A DNA stretch of 16,425 bases from a virus (lineage: Duplodnaviria; Heunggongvirae; Uroviricota; Caudoviricetes). The translations under genes and the position numbers were made by a program. This document shows, piece by piece, positions 3,782-16,425 of the stretch (the stretch's first letter is position 1; every line of letters starts with the position of its first letter). The stretch spans positions 1 through 16,425 of the IMG/VR virus record IMGVR_UViG_2648501186_000008, one strand, 5' to 3'. The notes under the pieces were generated by a model. It did not search any database, was not told the origin of the DNA, and saw only the letters and a program-made list of their open reading frames with translations.

Positions 3782-4039
3782 ATGCGTACAACCCAACAAT
3801 TCAGCATTACATTAACTAACGAAATGGCTGACATGGTGCGCGCCCGTGTGGCTTCCGGTGCCTATGCTTCAGAAAGCGAGGTCATTCGTGAAGGGCTTCG
3901 CGCACTGAATGAGCGCGATAAAGCAATCGAAGCGTGGTTAACGCATTCAGCCGCCCCCTCTCTTGATTCTATCCGCGAAACCCCAAACAACGGACGCTCC
4001 ATTTCACAGGTTCGCGCCGCGATTCGATCCGGGAAGTAA
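3782..4039 (+). CDS. parD: ParD-family (ribbon-helix-helix) type II antitoxin
   Basis: 85 aa; FSITLTNEMADMVRARVASGAYASESEVIREGLRAL matches the ParD antitoxin RHH signature. GAGG 8 nt upstream of ATG 3782. The ORF-track N-terminal extension is rejected. Confidence 0.8.
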   Translation: MRTTQQFSITLTNEMADMVRARVASGAYASESEVIREGLRALNERDKAIEAWLTHSAAPSLDSIRETPNNGRSISQVRAAIRSGK

Positions 4040-4044
4040 TCTGC

Positions 4045-4344
4045 ATGACATATGAAGTCATCATTACTCCTGAGGCCGAACAACAAATAATCAACCTGCA
4101 CAGGTATATAACGGAGAAAGCAGGGAACGTCATTGCTGACAATTATGCCAATGCGCTTCTTGATTATCTTGATGGGTTTTCTACATTCCCGCATCGGGGC
4201 AATAAACGCGATGATATTCGCCAGGGGATGCGGGTAACTCATTTCCGCCACAGAACGATTATTGCTTTTGCCGTTGATAGCAGAAAAGTCTTTATTGTCG
4301 GTATCTATCATGGTGGGCAAAGTTATGAAACCGATTTCTTATAA
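4045..4344 (+). CDS. parE: ParE/RelE-family type II toxin
   Basis: 99 aa; begins 5 nt after the parD stop (coupled). C-terminal FPHRG...DIRQGMR...HRTIIAF...VFIVGIYHGGQ pattern is typical of the ParE/RelE fold. Confidence 0.8.
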   Translation: MTYEVIITPEAEQQIINLHRYITEKAGNVIADNYANALLDYLDGFSTFPHRGNKRDDIRQGMRVTHFRHRTIIAFAVDSRKVFIVGIYHGGQSYETDFL

Positions 4345-4424
4345 ACTTTTACCCACATCATTCCGGTGTTAGAATTAACCGTCCGCCCCCTCTCTTACTG
4401 GCGGATTCGTAGGCTATATAAATC

Positions 4425-11042: not shown

Positions 11043-11177
11043 TAGCTAACCAACGAAGCTAAGGTTGGTAATTAAGGAGTTCTCCACGGGTCAGGTGGAG
11101 TGCGTGCGCCGGACACGGGTGAGCATCCGGTACGTTCTTTAAAAATCTGGATAGTCCCAACTTATTTAAACGGTTAA

Positions 11178-11609
11178 TTATCTTGAGTTCATCCAGAACT
11201 TATTATTGCAAGCGGGGCAAAAAGTACGAAAATGAGCATCAAAGCGCATTATTTCCATTGGCTGAAGTACAGATATTACCTTTTTTCCAAAACATTGTGG
11301 GCAAAGATACACAGTTATCTCAGTATCGCCTATAAATTGCTTCTTGGAATATACAAGGGTTCCAGAATCAAGCTTGTTAAGCTTGTAACCTTCCGCCTGT
11401 CGCTGAAAATCTTCTGTCTCTGCAATTTTTGCTTTGAGATGCATTATCTCTTCATCACGAAAGCGGATCGCATCGCAAAGAGAGAAGCATTCCGCCTGAA
11501 GCGTGATTAGTTTGTTCTGAAGTTCAATAGTTGCGGCTTTAACTTCTGCATCCGTTTTTGCGTCATTAATAACCTTAGCGAGACCAGCTGTCTCCTTTAT
11601 CGCAGCCAT
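11178..11609 (-). CDS. coiled-coil protein with C-terminal CxxC...CxxC zinc ribbon (143 aa), antisense to the early-left operon
   Basis: ATG 11609 has only a weak SD; the track extends it to a GTG at 11738. N-terminal heptad-like helix (IELQNKLITLQAE...EEIMHLKAKIAETEDFQRQ); C-terminal CPQC-x24-CPAC. AT-rich relative to its neighbours. Confidence 0.5.
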   Translation of the reverse strand: MAAIKETAGLAKVINDAKTDAEVKAATIELQNKLITLQAECFSLCDAIRFRDEEIMHLKAKIAETEDFQRQAEGYKLNKLDSGTLVYSKKQFIGDTEITVYLCPQCFGKKVISVLQPMEIMRFDAHFRTFCPACNNKFWMNSR

Positions 11610-11640
11610 AGCCGCTGACAGTTCTGCTATCACGTTGAGT

Positions 11641-11700
11641 ACTCTTCTCGTTGTTGGGGATATCCGGATTATACAAATTTCTTGTTGTTGGGGAATAACA
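11641..11700 (-). promoter_or_regulatory. candidate promoter for the zinc-ribbon gene: perfect TATAAT bracketed by an 11-bp direct repeat
   Basis: Minus-strand TATAAT at 11673-11668. Direct repeat GTTGTTGGGGA at 11650-11660 and 11684-11694 (plus strand) sits either side. No good -35. Confidence 0.3.
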
Positions 11701-11949
11701 GGAACCACCTCGCCTGACGTGGTTAAAAGCAGGCACACAACGCGAAAGCGTACGGCGAGGTAGCTGGTTCATAGATAGCCTGTCGTTAAATTTTCGTCGA
11801 CCGTGCACTTCCGGTTGTGGCAATCCGCGAAATGGCGCGGCGGTAAGTATGGCTGGGTTATCCTTACCCCATTAGTGGCACCGGGTTGTCAGGTTGACCA
11901 TACGCTTAAGTGACAACCCCGCTGCAACAACCCATGTTGATTACCTTTT

Positions 11950-11995
11950 GGCGGGTATCCGTTTTTTGTTTTCCCTTGTGATACCCGCCCTTTTT
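11950..11995 (+). terminator. terminator-like hairpin on the plus strand inside the early-left operon
   Basis: Perfect 10-bp stem GGCGGGTATC (11950-11959) / GATACCCGCC (11980-11989), followed by C then five T. The 20-nt loop is long for a canonical terminator. Confidence 0.4.
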
Positions 11996-11999
11996 AAAG

Positions 12000-12161
12000 T
12001 GAATTTTGTGATGCGGTGAATGCGGCTCAGCGCACGCGGAACAGTTAAAAAGGCCAGTTGACTTCCGTATTGGTTCTTATGGGTGGGTTCTCTGTATCCG
12101 GCGTTAATTATTAACTGGTTAACGTCACCTGGAGGCACCAGGCACCGCATCACAAAATTCA
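12000..12161. repeat. perfect 19-bp inverted repeat flanking a 124-bp segment
   Basis: TGAATTTTGTGATGCGGTG at 12000-12018 and its exact reverse complement CACCGCATCACAAAATTCA at 12143-12161. Confidence 0.6.
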
Positions 12162-12178: not shown

Positions 12179-12361
12179 ATGGAAACGTTATTACCAAACG
12201 TCAATACGTCTGAAGGTTGTTTTGAAATTGGTGTCAGAATCAGTAACCCTGTATTTACTGAAGATGCCATTAATAAGAGAAAACACGAACGGGAGCTATT
12301 AAATCAAATATGCATTGTTTCAATGCTGGCCCGTTTACGCCTGATGCAAAAAGGACGATGA
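12179..12361 (+). CDS. small protein (60 aa)
   Basis: ATG 12179 with GAGGA Shine-Dalgarno 8 nt upstream, just after the right inverted-repeat arm. Stop overlaps the next gene's start region. Confidence 0.4.
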   Translation: METLLPNVNTSEGCFEIGVRISNPVFTEDAINKRKHERELLNQICIVSMLARLRLMQKGR

Positions 12362-12363
12362 CA

Positions 12364-12567
12364 ATGAATACAGTATTTGCACTCGTTCTGACGGTTTTTC
12401 TTAATACAAGCGAGCCAGTCGATCTTGTTATTGGTATACATGACTCAATGAAAGAATGCATGGCTGCCGCAGCGGAACAGAAAATTCCCGGCAACTGTTA
12501 TCCGGTTGATAAAGTTACTCGCATGGACAATAACGAAATCCCGGCAGGACTTAAAACAGCACCGTAA
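12364..12567 (+). CDS. small secreted/membrane protein with N-terminal signal-peptide-like segment (67 aa)
   Basis: MNTVFALVLTVFLNTSEP hydrophobic N-terminus. AAGGA 8 nt upstream of ATG 12364; an in-frame ATG at 12358 is too close to the SD. Confidence 0.45.
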   Translation: MNTVFALVLTVFLNTSEPVDLVIGIHDSMKECMAAAAEQKIPGNCYPVDKVTRMDNNEIPAGLKTAP

Positions 12568-12647: not shown

Positions 12648-15119
12648 ATGAGTAAAGTCTTTATTTGCGCCGCCATTCCGGACGAACAGGCAATAAAGGA
12701 AGAAGGTGCAGTCGCTGTAGCCACTGCCATTGAAGCCGGCGACGAACGCCGCGCCCGAGCCAAATTTACCTGGCAATTCCTGGAGCAATATCCGGCTGCT
12801 CAGGACTGCGCTTATAAATTTCTTGTTTGCGAGGATAAACCCGGCATGCCCCGCCCTGCCATCGACTCCTGGGATACCGAATATATGCAGGAAAACTGCT
12901 GGGATGAGGAATCCGCTTCCTTTATTCCGGTCGAACCAGAATCCGATCCGATGAACGTCAATTTTGACAAGCTGTCCCCTGAAGTACAGAACGCGGTCCT
13001 GGTTAAGTTCGACACATGTGAAAACATCACCGTTGATATGGTTATTAGCGCACAGGAATTGTTGCAGGAAGACATGGCAACATTCGACGGACATATCGTT
13101 GAAGCGTTGATGAAAATGCCAGAAGTTAACGCCATGTATCCGGAGCTTAAGTTGCACGCCATTGGGTGGGTTAAGCATAAATGTATTCCTGGTGCTAAAT
13201 GGCCCGAAATTCAGGCAGAGATGCGCATCTGGAAAAAACGTCGCGAAGGTGAACGCAAGGAAACCGGAAAATACACGTCTGTTGTTGATCTCGCCCGCGC
13301 CAGAGCCAATCAACAGTACACTGACAATTCAACAGGAAAAATCAGCCCGGTCATTGCTGCCACTCATCGCGAATACAAGCAGACATGGAAAACACTGGAT
13401 GACGAACTGGCCTACGCTCTCTGGCCTGGTGATGTGGATGCCGGAAACATTGACGGCAGCATCCATCGCTGGGCAAAAAATGAAGTTATCGACAACGACC
13501 GCGAAGACTGGAAGCGTATCTCGGCATCAATGCGCAAACAGCCTGATGCCCTTCGCTACGACCGCCAGACTATTTTTGGCCTTGTCCGTGAACGTCCGAT
13601 CGACATTCACAAAGACCCTGTGGCACTGAACAAATACATTACTGAATACCTGACTACAAAGGGCGTGTTTGAAGATGAAGGAAGAAATCAGAGCGCAACT
13701 GATACTCTCTCGTCGCCAGTACCAGAAACTGATGCAGTGGAAACGGCAATTCCGGACAACGAAAAAACCGAATGCAAAGTGGAAGTCGAACCATCTGTAG
13801 AGCGTGAGGGGCCGTTCTACTTCCTCTTCACCGACAAGGATGGCGAAAAATATGGTCGCGCAAACAAACTTTCTGGTCTGAATAAGGCGCTGACTGCAGG
13901 GGCTACTGAAATCACGAAAGAAGAATATTTTGCCCGTAAAAACGGTACATACTCAGGTTCACAACAAAATACTGGTGCATCTGACACGACCGCACAACCA
14001 GAGCCGGTAAAAGTTACCGCTGACGAAGTAAACAAAATTATGCAGGCAGCCAATATCAGCCAGCCTGACGCCGATAAGTTGCTTGCTGTATCACGTGGTG
14101 AATTTGTTGCAGGGATTAGCGACCCGAATGATCCGAAATGGGTGAAGGGGATTGAAACCCGCGATTCAGTGAATCAGAACCAGCAAGAAACGGAACAGAA
14201 CGACCAGAAAGCGGAACAAAACAGCCCAAATGCGTTACAAAACGAGCCAGAAACGAAACAACCTGAGCCAGTAGCGCAACAGGAAGCGGAAAAAGTCTGC
14301 ACCGCCTGCGGTCAGACCGGCGGCGGCAACTGCCCTGATTGTGGTGCGGTGATGGGCGACGCAACATACCAGGAAACATTCGATGACAAGAACCAGGTTA
14401 AAGTTCAGGAAGACGATTCGGAGAAAATGGAAGGCGCTGAACATCCACACAAAGAGAATGCTGGCAGCGCTCAGGATCACGCCAGCGATAGTGAAACTGG
14501 CGAGACGGCAGATCCCTTAATTACGGTGAACGGTCATCACGTTATCACATCCACCAGCAGGACGTGTGACCATCTAATGATCGACCTTGAAACCATGGGA
14601 AAAAATCCTGATGCCCCGATTATCTCAATAGGTGCAATATTTTTCGATCCGCAAACCGGAGATATGGGACCGGAATTTAGTAAGACTATCGATCTGGAAA
14701 CTGCTGGCGGAGTCATTGATCGGGACACCATTAAATGGTGGCTTAAGCAATCACGCGAAGCGCAATCTGCCATTATGACCGATGAAATCCCGTTAGATGA
14801 TGCACTGTTACAATTGCGGGAATTTATCGACGAAAACTCCGGTGAATTTTTTGTTCAGGTCTGGGGAAATGGAGCCAACTTCGACAACACGATTTTGCGC
14901 CGTTCATACGAACGGCAGGGGATCCCCTGCCCGTGGCGTTACTACAACGATCGCGATGTACGCACAATCGTTGAGCTGGGGAAAGCCATAGACTTCGATG
15001 CCAGAACGGCTATTCCATTCGAAGGTGAGCGCCATAATGCACTTGATGACGCCCGTTACCAGGCAAAATACGTTTCAGCAATCTGGCAAAAACTGATCCC
15101 GAATCCGGTTGATTTTTAA
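12648..15119 (+). CDS. RecE-like (exonuclease VIII family) protein whose C-terminal domain is a DnaQ-like DEDDh 3'-5' exonuclease
   Basis: 823 aa. Internal segment DKLLAVSRGEFVAGISDPNDPKWVKGIETRD matches a segment of Rac RecE as I remember it. C-terminal 180 aa carry the three DEDDh motifs: MIDLETMG, WGNGANFDN and HNALDDARYQ. Also a CTAC-x7-CPDC zinc ribbon and a Gln/Glu-rich linker. Confidence 0.7.
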   Translation: MSKVFICAAIPDEQAIKEEGAVAVATAIEAGDERRARAKFTWQFLEQYPAAQDCAYKFLVCEDKPGMPRPAIDSWDTEYMQENCWDEESASFIPVEPESDPMNVNFDKLSPEVQNAVLVKFDTCENITVDMVISAQELLQEDMATFDGHIVEALMKMPEVNAMYPELKLHAIGWVKHKCIPGAKWPEIQAEMRIWKKRREGERKETGKYTSVVDLARARANQQYTDNSTGKISPVIAATHREYKQTWKTLDDELAYALWPGDVDAGNIDGSIHRWAKNEVIDNDREDWKRISASMRKQPDALRYDRQTIFGLVRERPIDIHKDPVALNKYITEYLTTKGVFEDEGRNQSATDTLSSPVPETDAVETAIPDNEKTECKVEVEPSVEREGPFYFLFTDKDGEKYGRANKLSGLNKALTAGATEITKEEYFARKNGTYSGSQQNTGASDTTAQPEPVKVTADEVNKIMQAANISQPDADKLLAVSRGEFVAGISDPNDPKWVKGIETRDSVNQNQQETEQNDQKAEQNSPNALQNEPETKQPEPVAQQEAEKVCTACGQTGGGNCPDCGAVMGDATYQETFDDKNQVKVQEDDSEKMEGAEHPHKENAGSAQDHASDSETGETADPLITVNGHHVITSTSRTCDHLMIDLETMGKNPDAPIISIGAIFFDPQTGDMGPEFSKTIDLETAGGVIDRDTIKWWLKQSREAQSAIMTDEIPLDDALLQLREFIDENSGEFFVQVWGNGANFDNTILRRSYERQGIPCPWRYYNDRDVRTIVELGKAIDFDARTAIPFEGERHNALDDARYQAKYVSAIWQKLIPNPVDF

Positions 15120-15185
15120 TGTTCAACCCTGATCGCCGTCCCCGAATTATATTGGCGGCGGTCATGCTGTAAGGCACGTGACCAC

Positions 15186-15437
15186 ATGTACGAATTAACT
15201 CTATCGCCAGCAGAGATTCAAGAGATCACGAAATACGAGCGATACACAAAACAGCAACACCAGTTAAGGCTGCACGGTATCCCATTTGTAATCGGTCCTA
15301 AAAACGAACCAATAGTTCTTCGCAGGGATATTCCACACGGACTGACTACGATGCCAAAAGCACCTGAACTGGTTTCCGCTGAACCCGATTTTGAGGCGCT
15401 GAACAATGGGAAGATCAAGAAAAAACAAAAAAGATAA
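15186..15437 (+). CDS. putative excisionase / recombination directionality factor
   Basis: 83-aa basic-tailed protein immediately upstream of and overlapping the integrase by 32 nt. Call is positional; I do not see a lambda Xis-like sequence. Confidence 0.45.
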   Translation: MYELTLSPAEIQEITKYERYTKQQHQLRLHGIPFVIGPKNEPIVLRRDIPHGLTTMPKAPELVSAEPDFEALNNGKIKKKQKR

Positions 15438-16425
15438 TGCACTACCACCGCGTGTTAGATCGAATGGTTACAGTTACGTATGGAAACCCGAAGGAAGCAC
15501 AAGAACTATAGGGCTCGGAAGAGTGCGGGAAACCAGCGTAGCTAAAGTCTGGCAAAATTATGAGCTGGAAAAAGCAAAACTCCACAACATAATGACAGTA
15601 GCTAAATTATGGCACATGTTTATGGACTCCCCTGCATTTACAGAACTGGCCCCCCGAACCCAAAAAGATTATCGGCAACATCAAAGGGCATTGTTGGCAG
15701 TATTCGGAAAAGTGCTTGCTGATAATGTAAAAATTGAACAGGTAAGAATTTTCATGGATAAGCGAGGACTTGAGAGCAAGACCCAAGCAAACCATGAACT
15801 GGCAAGTCTGAGCCGTGTATACGGATGGGGATATGAGCGTGGGTATGTGAAAAATAATCCATGCAAAGGAGTCAGAAAATTCACACTTAAAGCCCGTACT
15901 GTTTACATCACCGATGAACAGTATGCTGCAATATATGCGGAAGCAATTCCACAGTTACGTATTGCAATGGAGATATCCTATCTTTGTGCGGCAAGGCTCG
16001 GTGATGTACTCGAGCTGAAATGGCAGGATATTATGGAGAAAGGGATTTACATTGAGCAAAACAAGACCGGCACTAAACAAATCAAGGAATGGTCTCCGCG
16101 ATTACGTACGGCGATCCAGTTAGCCCGAAATGTATCTTCCGGCACATGCGAGTATGTGATCAACACAACCAAAGGCGGGAAGGTAATAGCCAAGACGCTG
16201 AACAACTGGTGGAATCAGGCTAAACGTGCAGCCGAGCAAAAAGCCGGCGTTCCGTTTGGGTGCAACTTCCATGACATAAAAGCCAAAGGGATTTCAGATT
16301 ACGAAGGCAGCAGTCGCGACAAACAAATTTTCAGTGGACACAAAACAGAAAATCAGGTGTTGATTTACGATCGTAAAACCAAAATAACACCAACACTGGA
16401 TTTGCCGCTTGTGGTCAGTAAGTAG
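15406..16425 (+). CDS. int: tyrosine integrase, lambda Int family
   Basis: 339 aa. N-terminal arm-binding region MGRSRKNKKDNALPPRVRSNGYSY...GLGRVRE parallels lambda Int MGRRRSHERRDLPP...GLGRDRR. Catalytic boxes AARLGD, NKTGTK, SGHKT and LIYDR align with lambda R212, K235, H333 and Y342. Stop codon is the last three bases of the window. Confidence 0.85.
   Translation: MGRSRKNKKDNALPPRVRSNGYSYVWKPEGSTRTIGLGRVRETSVAKVWQNYELEKAKLHNIMTVAKLWHMFMDSPAFTELAPRTQKDYRQHQRALLAVFGKVLADNVKIEQVRIFMDKRGLESKTQANHELASLSRVYGWGYERGYVKNNPCKGVRKFTLKARTVYITDEQYAAIYAEAIPQLRIAMEISYLCAARLGDVLELKWQDIMEKGIYIEQNKTGTKQIKEWSPRLRTAIQLARNVSSGTCEYVINTTKGGKVIAKTLNNWWNQAKRAAEQKAGVPFGCNFHDIKAKGISDYEGSSRDKQIFSGHKTENQVLIYDRKTKITPTLDLPLVVSK

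Follow-up and report, generated by a model that had tools for sequence, protein, structure and literature searches.

The open reading frame (ORF) at positions 12648–15119 (+ strand) of the window, which is the whole stretch of 16,425 nucleotides (nt) analysed here from the IMG/VR virus record IMGVR_UViG_2648501186_000008, encodes a protein of 823 amino acids (aa) which belongs to the YdfE family and ends in a DEDDh exonuclease domain. The protein is a three-part mosaic: it is composed of a YdfE scaffold, a linker of ~150 aa which is shared with RecE of the Rac prophage, and the DEDDh exonuclease. It may be an exonuclease which is delivered by its scaffold to DNA ends and which acts there in the 3'-to-5' direction during phage recombination, a reading to which we give a probability of roughly 0.45. 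Both the 3'-to-5' polarity and the DNA substrate are predicted from the membership of the exonuclease family.

The exonuclease domain spans aa 642–813 (14571–15086, +) and matches PF16473, the Rv2179c-like 3'-5' exoribonuclease domain, over profile positions 2–177 of 177 (E 1.6e-67, 227.1 bits for a cut-off of 27). Motif I is D646-L-E648 (14583–14591, +), whose D and E are invariant and align with D7 and E9 of DexA from phage T4. Motif II is N741-G-A-N-F745-D746 (14868–14885, +), in which G742, F745 and D746 are invariant in the alignment. Motif III, H796-NALD-D801 (15033–15050, +), aligns with H186 and D191 of DexA, and its H-x4-D form defines the DEDDh subtype. None of the five catalytic residues, D646, E648, D746, H796 and D801, varies when the domain is aligned with T4 DexA and four stand-alone phage homologues. 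Given this profile score and these catalytic residues, the 823-aa protein is a member of the DexA/Rv2179c-like DEDDh family. An earlier note, made from the letters of the window alone, had recognized DnaQ-like motifs in the C-terminus; the first and the third are as it described them, and the second, which it wrote as N-x2-FD, is really N-x3-FD, a minor error. The same note held that the C-terminus is not of the lambda-exonuclease type. The domain search with hidden Markov models (HMM) bears this out: PF16473 was matched and PD-(D/E)XK was not.

When the 823-aa protein is searched against the PDB sequences, the only solved match is a 227-aa 'exodeoxyribonuclease' (8KEL/8KEN, E 1.5e-6), and phmmer returned no chain for Rv2179c at E ≤ 0.01. 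These entries are consistent with T4 DexA (exonuclease A): the annotated length of dexA agrees, and the substitutions of the second chain, S87A/D90A, are numbered in accordance with the DexA sequence. T4 DexA is annotated as a 3'-to-5' DNA exonuclease, belongs to the same DEDDh subfamily and has the five catalytic residues at aligned positions, but it is a stand-alone protein of 227 aa with extra loops, its identity to the domain is only 26–28%, and it has W152 where the 823-aa protein has Y766. Rv2179c from Mycobacterium tuberculosis is a stand-alone bacterial RNA exonuclease. It is the founder of PF16473, the profile which the 823-aa protein matches at 227 bits, but the 823-aa gene lies in a phage recombination locus. 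PF16473 is mixed as regards the substrate: Rv2179c acts on RNA, as its Pfam name says, and T4 DexA on DNA.

Homologues of the DEDDh domain were found by tblastn in 1,618 phage records. The closest stand-alone homologue is BEI45436.1 from the Klebsiella P22-like phage phiKp_30, a protein of 182 aa which is 56% identical to aa 631–823 and is also encoded in the early region of a temperate phage. Unlike the 823-aa protein, it has no scaffold and has an annealase partner alongside: the gene order is Rad52-family annealase, single-stranded-DNA-binding protein (SSB), exonuclease, and then a weak, sub-threshold Abc2-like match. Another stand-alone homologue is flanked by a Cas4-family exonuclease, an Enc34-type single-stranded-DNA-binding protein and a DNA polymerase. 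The contexts of these two homologues speak for a DNA substrate and a recombination setting. In the Vibrio phage K343 (locus L010, 1453–3301), a stand-alone DEDDh homologue with 32% identity is found directly 5' of the integrase gene, which suggests that the arrangement of a DEDDh exonuclease next to int may predate the fusion.

Rac RecE (exodeoxyribonuclease VIII, b1350) is, like the 823-aa protein, a large multi-part protein encoded at the same place of the early-left operon. The two proteins share a central region and, much more closely, the linker with the same zinc ribbon. In a BLASTP comparison, aa 262–626 align with residues 278–592 of RecE at 39% identity overall, and by eye the identity is much higher in aa 473–626; the internal segment in common with Rac RecE which the earlier note had seen is thus confirmed, and it corresponds to the non-catalytic middle of RecE. 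At the DNA level, the similarity to K-12 recE (77% identity) is confined to nt 14072–14521 of the window (~450 bp). The term 'RecE-like scaffold', used in the earlier note, is correct for the central and linker parts but not for the first ~260 aa, which are of the YdfE type and not Exonuc_VIII. Indeed, the domains of K-12 RecE are PF06630 (Exonuc_VIII, aa 2–178) and the PDDEXK domain PF12684 (aa 615–850), and a Pfam search found neither of them in the 823-aa protein. A tblastn search with RecE aa 600–866 yielded no more than noise (E 0.65) for the window, the phage Tritos and the prophage of ETEC4073, an enterotoxigenic E. coli (ETEC), and nothing at E ≤ 1e-3 in 80 IMG/VR loci which carry full-length homologues of the gene with at most 6 kb of flank. 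The RecE equivalog model NF007259 of NCBIfam is matched at profile positions 261–603 of 877 with 279 bits and does not reach its cut-off of 1269.

The identification of the protein as RecE was rejected on four counts: it lacks both the nuclease domain and the N-terminal domain of RecE, it scores below the equivalog cut-off, and no recT partner is found downstream. RecE works in the 5'-to-3' direction, whereas the 823-aa protein is predicted to work in the 3'-to-5' direction. The most apt description of the protein is that of a RecE-type early-left recombination protein in a domain-swapped variant.

The scaffold was modelled with AlphaFold2 over aa 1–470, based on 42 homologues (mean predicted local distance difference test, pLDDT, of 82). 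The model predicts three confident modules which are separated by disordered linkers. The first is the YdfE-type N-terminal domain, aa 1–~210 (12648–13277, +), which has a mixed alpha/beta composition and no known fold relative. The second is a central helical domain, aa ~245–340 (13380–13667, +), predicted with a pLDDT of ~90–95, which has a weak resemblance to RecE aa 278–356 according to BLASTP and NCBIfam. The third is a small beta-hairpin/helix module, aa ~390–430 (13815–13937, +), where the pLDDT is above 90; it falls below 50 in the flanks, where the disordered linkers are predicted at aa 345–383 and 439–453. The YdfE-type scaffold (aa 1–~470) is modelled as a set of well-folded domains without a known structural relative.

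The linker common to Rac recE follows the scaffold at aa ~473–626 (14064–14525, +), as delimited by DNA and protein alignment, and forms the mosaic joint of the family. It includes a Gln/Glu/Asn-rich low-complexity stretch, aa 501–550 (14148–14297, +), in which the Q+E content is 37–42% in windows of 40 residues starting at aa 501–511. This stretch is followed by a CxxC-x7-CxxC zinc-ribbon motif made of C551, C554, C562 and C565 (14298–14342, +), located with a regular expression on the translation. Both features had been picked out in the earlier note (the first one as a Gln/Glu-rich linker at about 14160–14290), and both are present. The zinc ribbon also occurs in K-12 RecE. It was discarded as a defining feature of the family, because only 5 of the 49 long family representatives have it.

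The scaffold and linker are used with more than one C-terminus. An exhaustive HMMER search with aa 1–640 against 1.84 billion cluster representatives returned only 253 clusters at E ≤ 0.001, and the C-terminal classes emerged when six segments of the query were located in the long family members. Both N-terminal types are seen with both nuclease types: the YdfE-type N-terminus occurs with DEDDh (the 823-aa protein and P0122) and with PD-(D/E)XK (P0131, P0194 and P0221), and the RecE-type N-terminus occurs with DEDDh (P0128, P0141 and P0247) and with PD-(D/E)XK (RecE). The alignments point to the conserved linker as the mosaic junction. The gene of locus L014, which joins a RecE-type N-terminus to DEDDh, is 94% identical at the DNA level to nt 14094–15166 of the window. 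The type of C-terminus goes together with the downstream genes. In the two loci examined for the PD-(D/E)XK forms, Rac and L015, the next gene belongs to the recT family (in L015 its start overlaps, and its product matches PF03837 with E 2e-36), whereas xis/int come straight after the DEDDh forms of the window, Tritos, Evi and L014.

A third large class consists of a YdfE scaffold and a C-terminus of ~290 aa with no Pfam match. It comprises ~1,000 proteins from Salmonella, Klebsiella, Enterobacter, Pantoea and other genera, which NCBI names 'exodeoxyribonuclease VIII'. In its C-terminus, K-S-L is invariant and T-D-A nearly so within a KKSLTDA..KKALS.LGFSAD motif, from which this part is predicted to be a Rad52-fold annealase rather than a nuclease. 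In Salmonella, the gene of this class lies directly 3' of a Gam gene. This points to a systematic mis-annotation: the ~780-aa 'exodeoxyribonuclease VIII' proteins of Salmonella, Klebsiella and Enterobacter lack any recognizable nuclease domain and have a predicted Rad52-like annealase in its place. Within the literature searched, it is new that one scaffold is joined to three alternative enzymes predicted to act on DNA ends and that, in the loci examined, an annealase gene accompanies only the 5'-to-3' nuclease.

Some family members depart from these classes. In P0205 (703 aa), the RecE N-terminus and linker continue in frame, within the zinc ribbon, into a sequence that looks RecT-like by eye; this protein would be a putative recE-recT deletion fusion. 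In P0125 (702 aa) and P0137 (683 aa), the scaffold ends in a short conserved tail of ~50 aa, which contains LTIAA(L/I)(H/Q)GLCANP, with no enzyme domain.

To look for an annealase partner of the 823-aa protein, tblastn was run with Gam, lambda Exo, lambda Bet, RecT of two types, the nuclease domain of RecE, an annealase of the Rad52 family and the annealase domain of the third class described above. This panel, which did not include the Erf, Sak4 and gp2.5 types, gave only noise (E ≥ 0.16, with the Exo and RecE-nuclease queries) when applied to the window, the ETEC prophage and the complete 46-kb genome of Tritos. It gave nothing at E ≤ 1e-3 in the 80 loci. Neither the annotation of the window nor a tblastn search of it at E ≤ 1 reveals a recT, bet or Rad52-like gene, and no recT-like gene is listed in the RefSeq annotation of the ~22-kb prophage remnant to which the window belongs or in that of Tritos. 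The earlier note was therefore right that no annealase is encoded between the 823-aa gene and int, since a DUF4224 excisionase-like gene comes next and is followed by the integrase gene. Nor did a recT-like gene turn up elsewhere, be it in the window, the prophage remnant, Tritos or the 80 related viral loci.

The gene is an uninterrupted ORF of 823 codons with an ATG start and a GAGG 5' of this start. Its product is 100% identical to the RefSeq protein WP_046788614.1, an 'exonuclease' from porcine ETEC, and matches PHROG 2082 (phrog_2082) from end to end (823/823 positions). Over its first 256 residues, the protein shares 93% identity with what is encoded by ydfE from the Qin prophage of E. 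coli K-12 (b1577), from which it follows that the gene is an intact ydfE; it can be regarded as the complete form of this Qin-type prophage gene. K-12 ydfE has the same neighbours (ydfB, ydfC, dicB and ydfD), but it is cut off by IS2 after ~256 codons, lacks the linker and the exonuclease, and is a pseudogene. The families PF27430 (YdfE_N), PF27432 (YdfE_C) and PF16473 are precomputed on homologues which are 91–95% identical to the 823-aa protein, so that the YdfE_N and YdfE_C assignment is indirect, via close homologues; together with the homology to the K-12 YdfE fragment, it places the protein in the YdfE family.

The combination of YdfE and DEDDh is already in the domain databases and very common; it is neither rare nor new. 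As it is catalogued in Pfam, PHROG 2082 and RefSeq, the architecture is less unusual than the earlier note assumed. Copies with at least 80% coverage are present in 3,532 of 5,426 complete E. coli genomes (~65%), with a median of 2 matching places per genome and a maximum of 10. The full-length gene is found in 17 phage records, including those of the mEp460, Evi, Tritos, HannyBb and PPompW phages. RefSeq names the YdfE-type protein 'exonuclease' or '3'-5' exoribonuclease domain-containing protein', and in phage records genes of the 823-aa type are often misnamed 'exodeoxyribonuclease VIII'. The comparison with the gene of Tritos shows purifying selection on all segments, with ratios of nonsynonymous to synonymous changes (dN/dS) of 0.09–0.36: 0.13 for aa 1–210, 0.09 for aa 245–340, 0.36 for aa 341–470, 0.35 for the linker and 0.34 for the DEDDh domain (the latter from few changes, with a dS of only 0.034).

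A lambdoid prophage adjoins yccA in porcine enterotoxigenic E. coli; the window is its early region and is 100% identical in ETEC4073. There, the prophage (NZ_CP122660.1, 2936464–2959050) is a defective remnant of ~22 kb which extends from a tRNA-Ser gene to int, and the window is its int-proximal 16.4 kb. The remnant contains a cut-short tail-fibre gene, a holin gene, a DNA methyltransferase gene, Q, RusA and a ParDE toxin-antitoxin pair (window ~3783–4345); no capsid, head or tail-shaft gene is annotated in the ~22 kb.

The early-left genes are, in order, a racR-type repressor gene, DUF1391, ydfB, ydfC, a minus-strand ORF, dicB (12179–12361, +, RefSeq annotation), a ydfD-like DUF1482 gene (12364–12567, +, RefSeq; PF07358, E 1.7e-21), the 823-aa gene, the DUF4224 excisionase-like gene (15186–15437, +, E 3e-9) and the gene of a tyrosine integrase (15406–16425, +, RefSeq annotation). 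The 823-aa gene is the last early-left gene before xis-int, a position which matches that of exo-bet in lambda and of recE-recT in Rac. Homologues of both dicB and ydfD are found within ±6 kb in 76 of the 80 related viral loci, the gene order around them having been inspected in the window, Qin and Tritos only.

The window has a diverged sequence at ~11921–12000 (+), where Qin and Tritos have the small RNA (sRNA) DicF. The 5' CTGCAAC and the 3' GCC-T-run are retained and the antisense core is rewritten. The Rfam model of DicF has no match in the window, and no Rfam RNA reaches its gathering score there. This sequence could be a variant of DicF with a different target, or a decayed copy. Just 5' of dicB, the segment 12002–12156 (+) has a sub-threshold match to STnc100 (33.5 bits for a gathering score of 47, E 1.9e-5) and is 80% identical to the region 5' of kilR in Rac, a region which partly overlaps the kilS sRNA. 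The minus-strand ORF (11178–11738, −), annotated with 151 aa and up to 186 aa long, occupies the place of sieB in Rac and has no convincing Pfam or PADLOC match; the segment ~11134–11724 is an insertion or a replacement relative to Tritos.

As a recombination protein, the 823-aa protein would act on DNA ends as a 3'-to-5' exonuclease. Its scaffold would bring the DEDDh nuclease to the site or partner to which the N-terminal region of RecE brings the RecE nuclease. There, as the phage recombines or replicates in a recombination-dependent way, the DEDDh nuclease would trim 3' tails or ends. The system would have no annealase of its own, and it may use functions of the host RecA pathway or the annealases of co-resident prophages. 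It would have originated from lambdoid mosaic exchange at the conserved linker, in which the PD-(D/E)XK domain, recT and what follows were replaced by the DEDDh domain and xis/int.

Several points weigh against this proposal. A 3'-to-5' exonuclease which acts on duplex ends would produce 5' overhangs; these are not the classical substrate of annealases or of RecA pathways, so that a role in recombination is not self-evident. The family includes an RNA exonuclease, Rv2179c, and RefSeq uses the name '3'-5' exoribonuclease'. The 80 loci are 93–100% identical and are therefore not independent evidence for the absence of a partner, and annealases of the P22 Erf, Sak4 and gp2.5 types lay outside the search panel. 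No functional study of the 823-aa protein was found in the literature on YdfE, on Rv2179c and prophages, or on RecE and DEDDh. Finally, the ORF has been kept intact in a ~22-kb remnant which is otherwise defective, and this fits a role that benefits the host, such as defence, at least as well.

This last point leads to the first and main alternative, which we nevertheless consider rather unlikely: the protein would be a nuclease of phage conflict, which degrades the DNA of superinfecting phages (e.g., the modified DNA of T-even phages) or destroys a nucleic-acid component of a host defence, to the benefit of the lysogen. Kang et al. have described an E. coli homologue of DexA, EcD ('HREX'), which cleaves DNA containing 5-hydroxymethylcytosine (5hmC) and not unmodified DNA, and which protects against T4 (Kang et al. 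2025, PMC12153337). EcD is a DexA-family DEDDh exonuclease, as is the C-terminal domain of the 823-aa protein, and its MIDTET resembles M644-IDLET of the latter. A benefit to the lysogen would also agree with the intact ORF in the defective 22-kb remnant, with the presence of the gene in 65% of complete E. coli genomes (median of 2 places, up to 10), with the failure to find an annealase partner, and with the neighbouring dicB, which is reportedly protective against phage. However, EcD is short, stands alone and starts with MIDTET, whereas the 823-aa protein is fused to a scaffold of the recombination type, whose other fusion partners are recombination enzymes. Moreover, W152 of DexA, which is required for the recognition of 5hmC, corresponds to Y766, an aromatic but changed residue, and the tetramer residue D90 of DexA, which is Ala in EcD, is retained as D718 (EcD was compared by its N-terminus and its reported residues). 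D169, a further DexA residue for the recognition of 5hmC, pairs with D782, at a place where the alignment has gaps and is uncertain. Phage genome records retain the gene as well. In PADLOC-DB 2.0, the only match is to a generic Cas-associated DEDDh model (E 1.9e-5); no system-specific model was matched, and membership of a known defence system was rejected.

It is improbable that the protein is an RNA exonuclease which trims the 3' ends of RNAs, for example those of early-left transcripts, of sRNAs (in the DicF region) or of the host. The best Pfam model is named for the 3'-5' exoribonuclease Rv2179c, RefSeq has adopted the same name, and the gene lies within an operon of the dicB/DicF type. 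Yet the only sequence relative with a solved structure is an 'exodeoxyribonuclease' consistent with T4 DexA, a DNA exonuclease, and the genes of close stand-alone homologues belong to modules for annealase and SSB or for DNA polymerase. Elsewhere, the scaffold is joined to enzymes of DNA recombination, and the DicF sequence of the window has diverged beyond the Rfam model while the gene is intact. That the protein has no function and is only a product of prophage mosaicism, recombined in frame by chance and carried along with xis/int, is very improbable, even though the junctions coincide with the stretch of DNA homology to recE, the window copy lies in a decaying prophage and the K-12 copy is a pseudogene, because dN/dS is well below 1 in every segment, all the catalytic residues are intact, full-length copies exist in thousands of genomes as well as in phage genome records, and the DEDDh fusion recurs with two different N-termini.

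Beyond recombination by the 823-aa protein itself, it is possible, although doubtful, that the N-terminal region of YdfE and RecE is a general platform which docks enzymes of DNA ends (PD-(D/E)XK 5'-to-3' nucleases, DEDDh 3'-to-5' nucleases and Rad52-type annealases) onto one cellular target. The function of the N-terminal two-thirds of RecE was listed as unknown in a 2023 review (PMC11611040). If the platform exists, the target of the scaffold would also explain this part of RecE, the DEDDh form would be an annealase-independent route of end processing with the opposite polarity in lambdoid phages, and its nuclease might in addition be directed against competing phages.

Recombineering relies heavily on RecET, and part of the N-terminal region of RecE, together with the YdfE-type N-terminus, is a reusable module. 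The scaffold is naturally joined to nucleases of both predicted polarities and to a predicted Rad52-fold annealase, and these natural chimeras make its role testable. The DEDDh form is among the commonest uncharacterised prophage proteins of E. coli, often with several copies per genome. Since it is present in ~65% of the complete genomes, often in multiple copies, its activity could affect recombination between prophages, for example in strains rich in Shiga toxin (Stx) phages, or phage exclusion.

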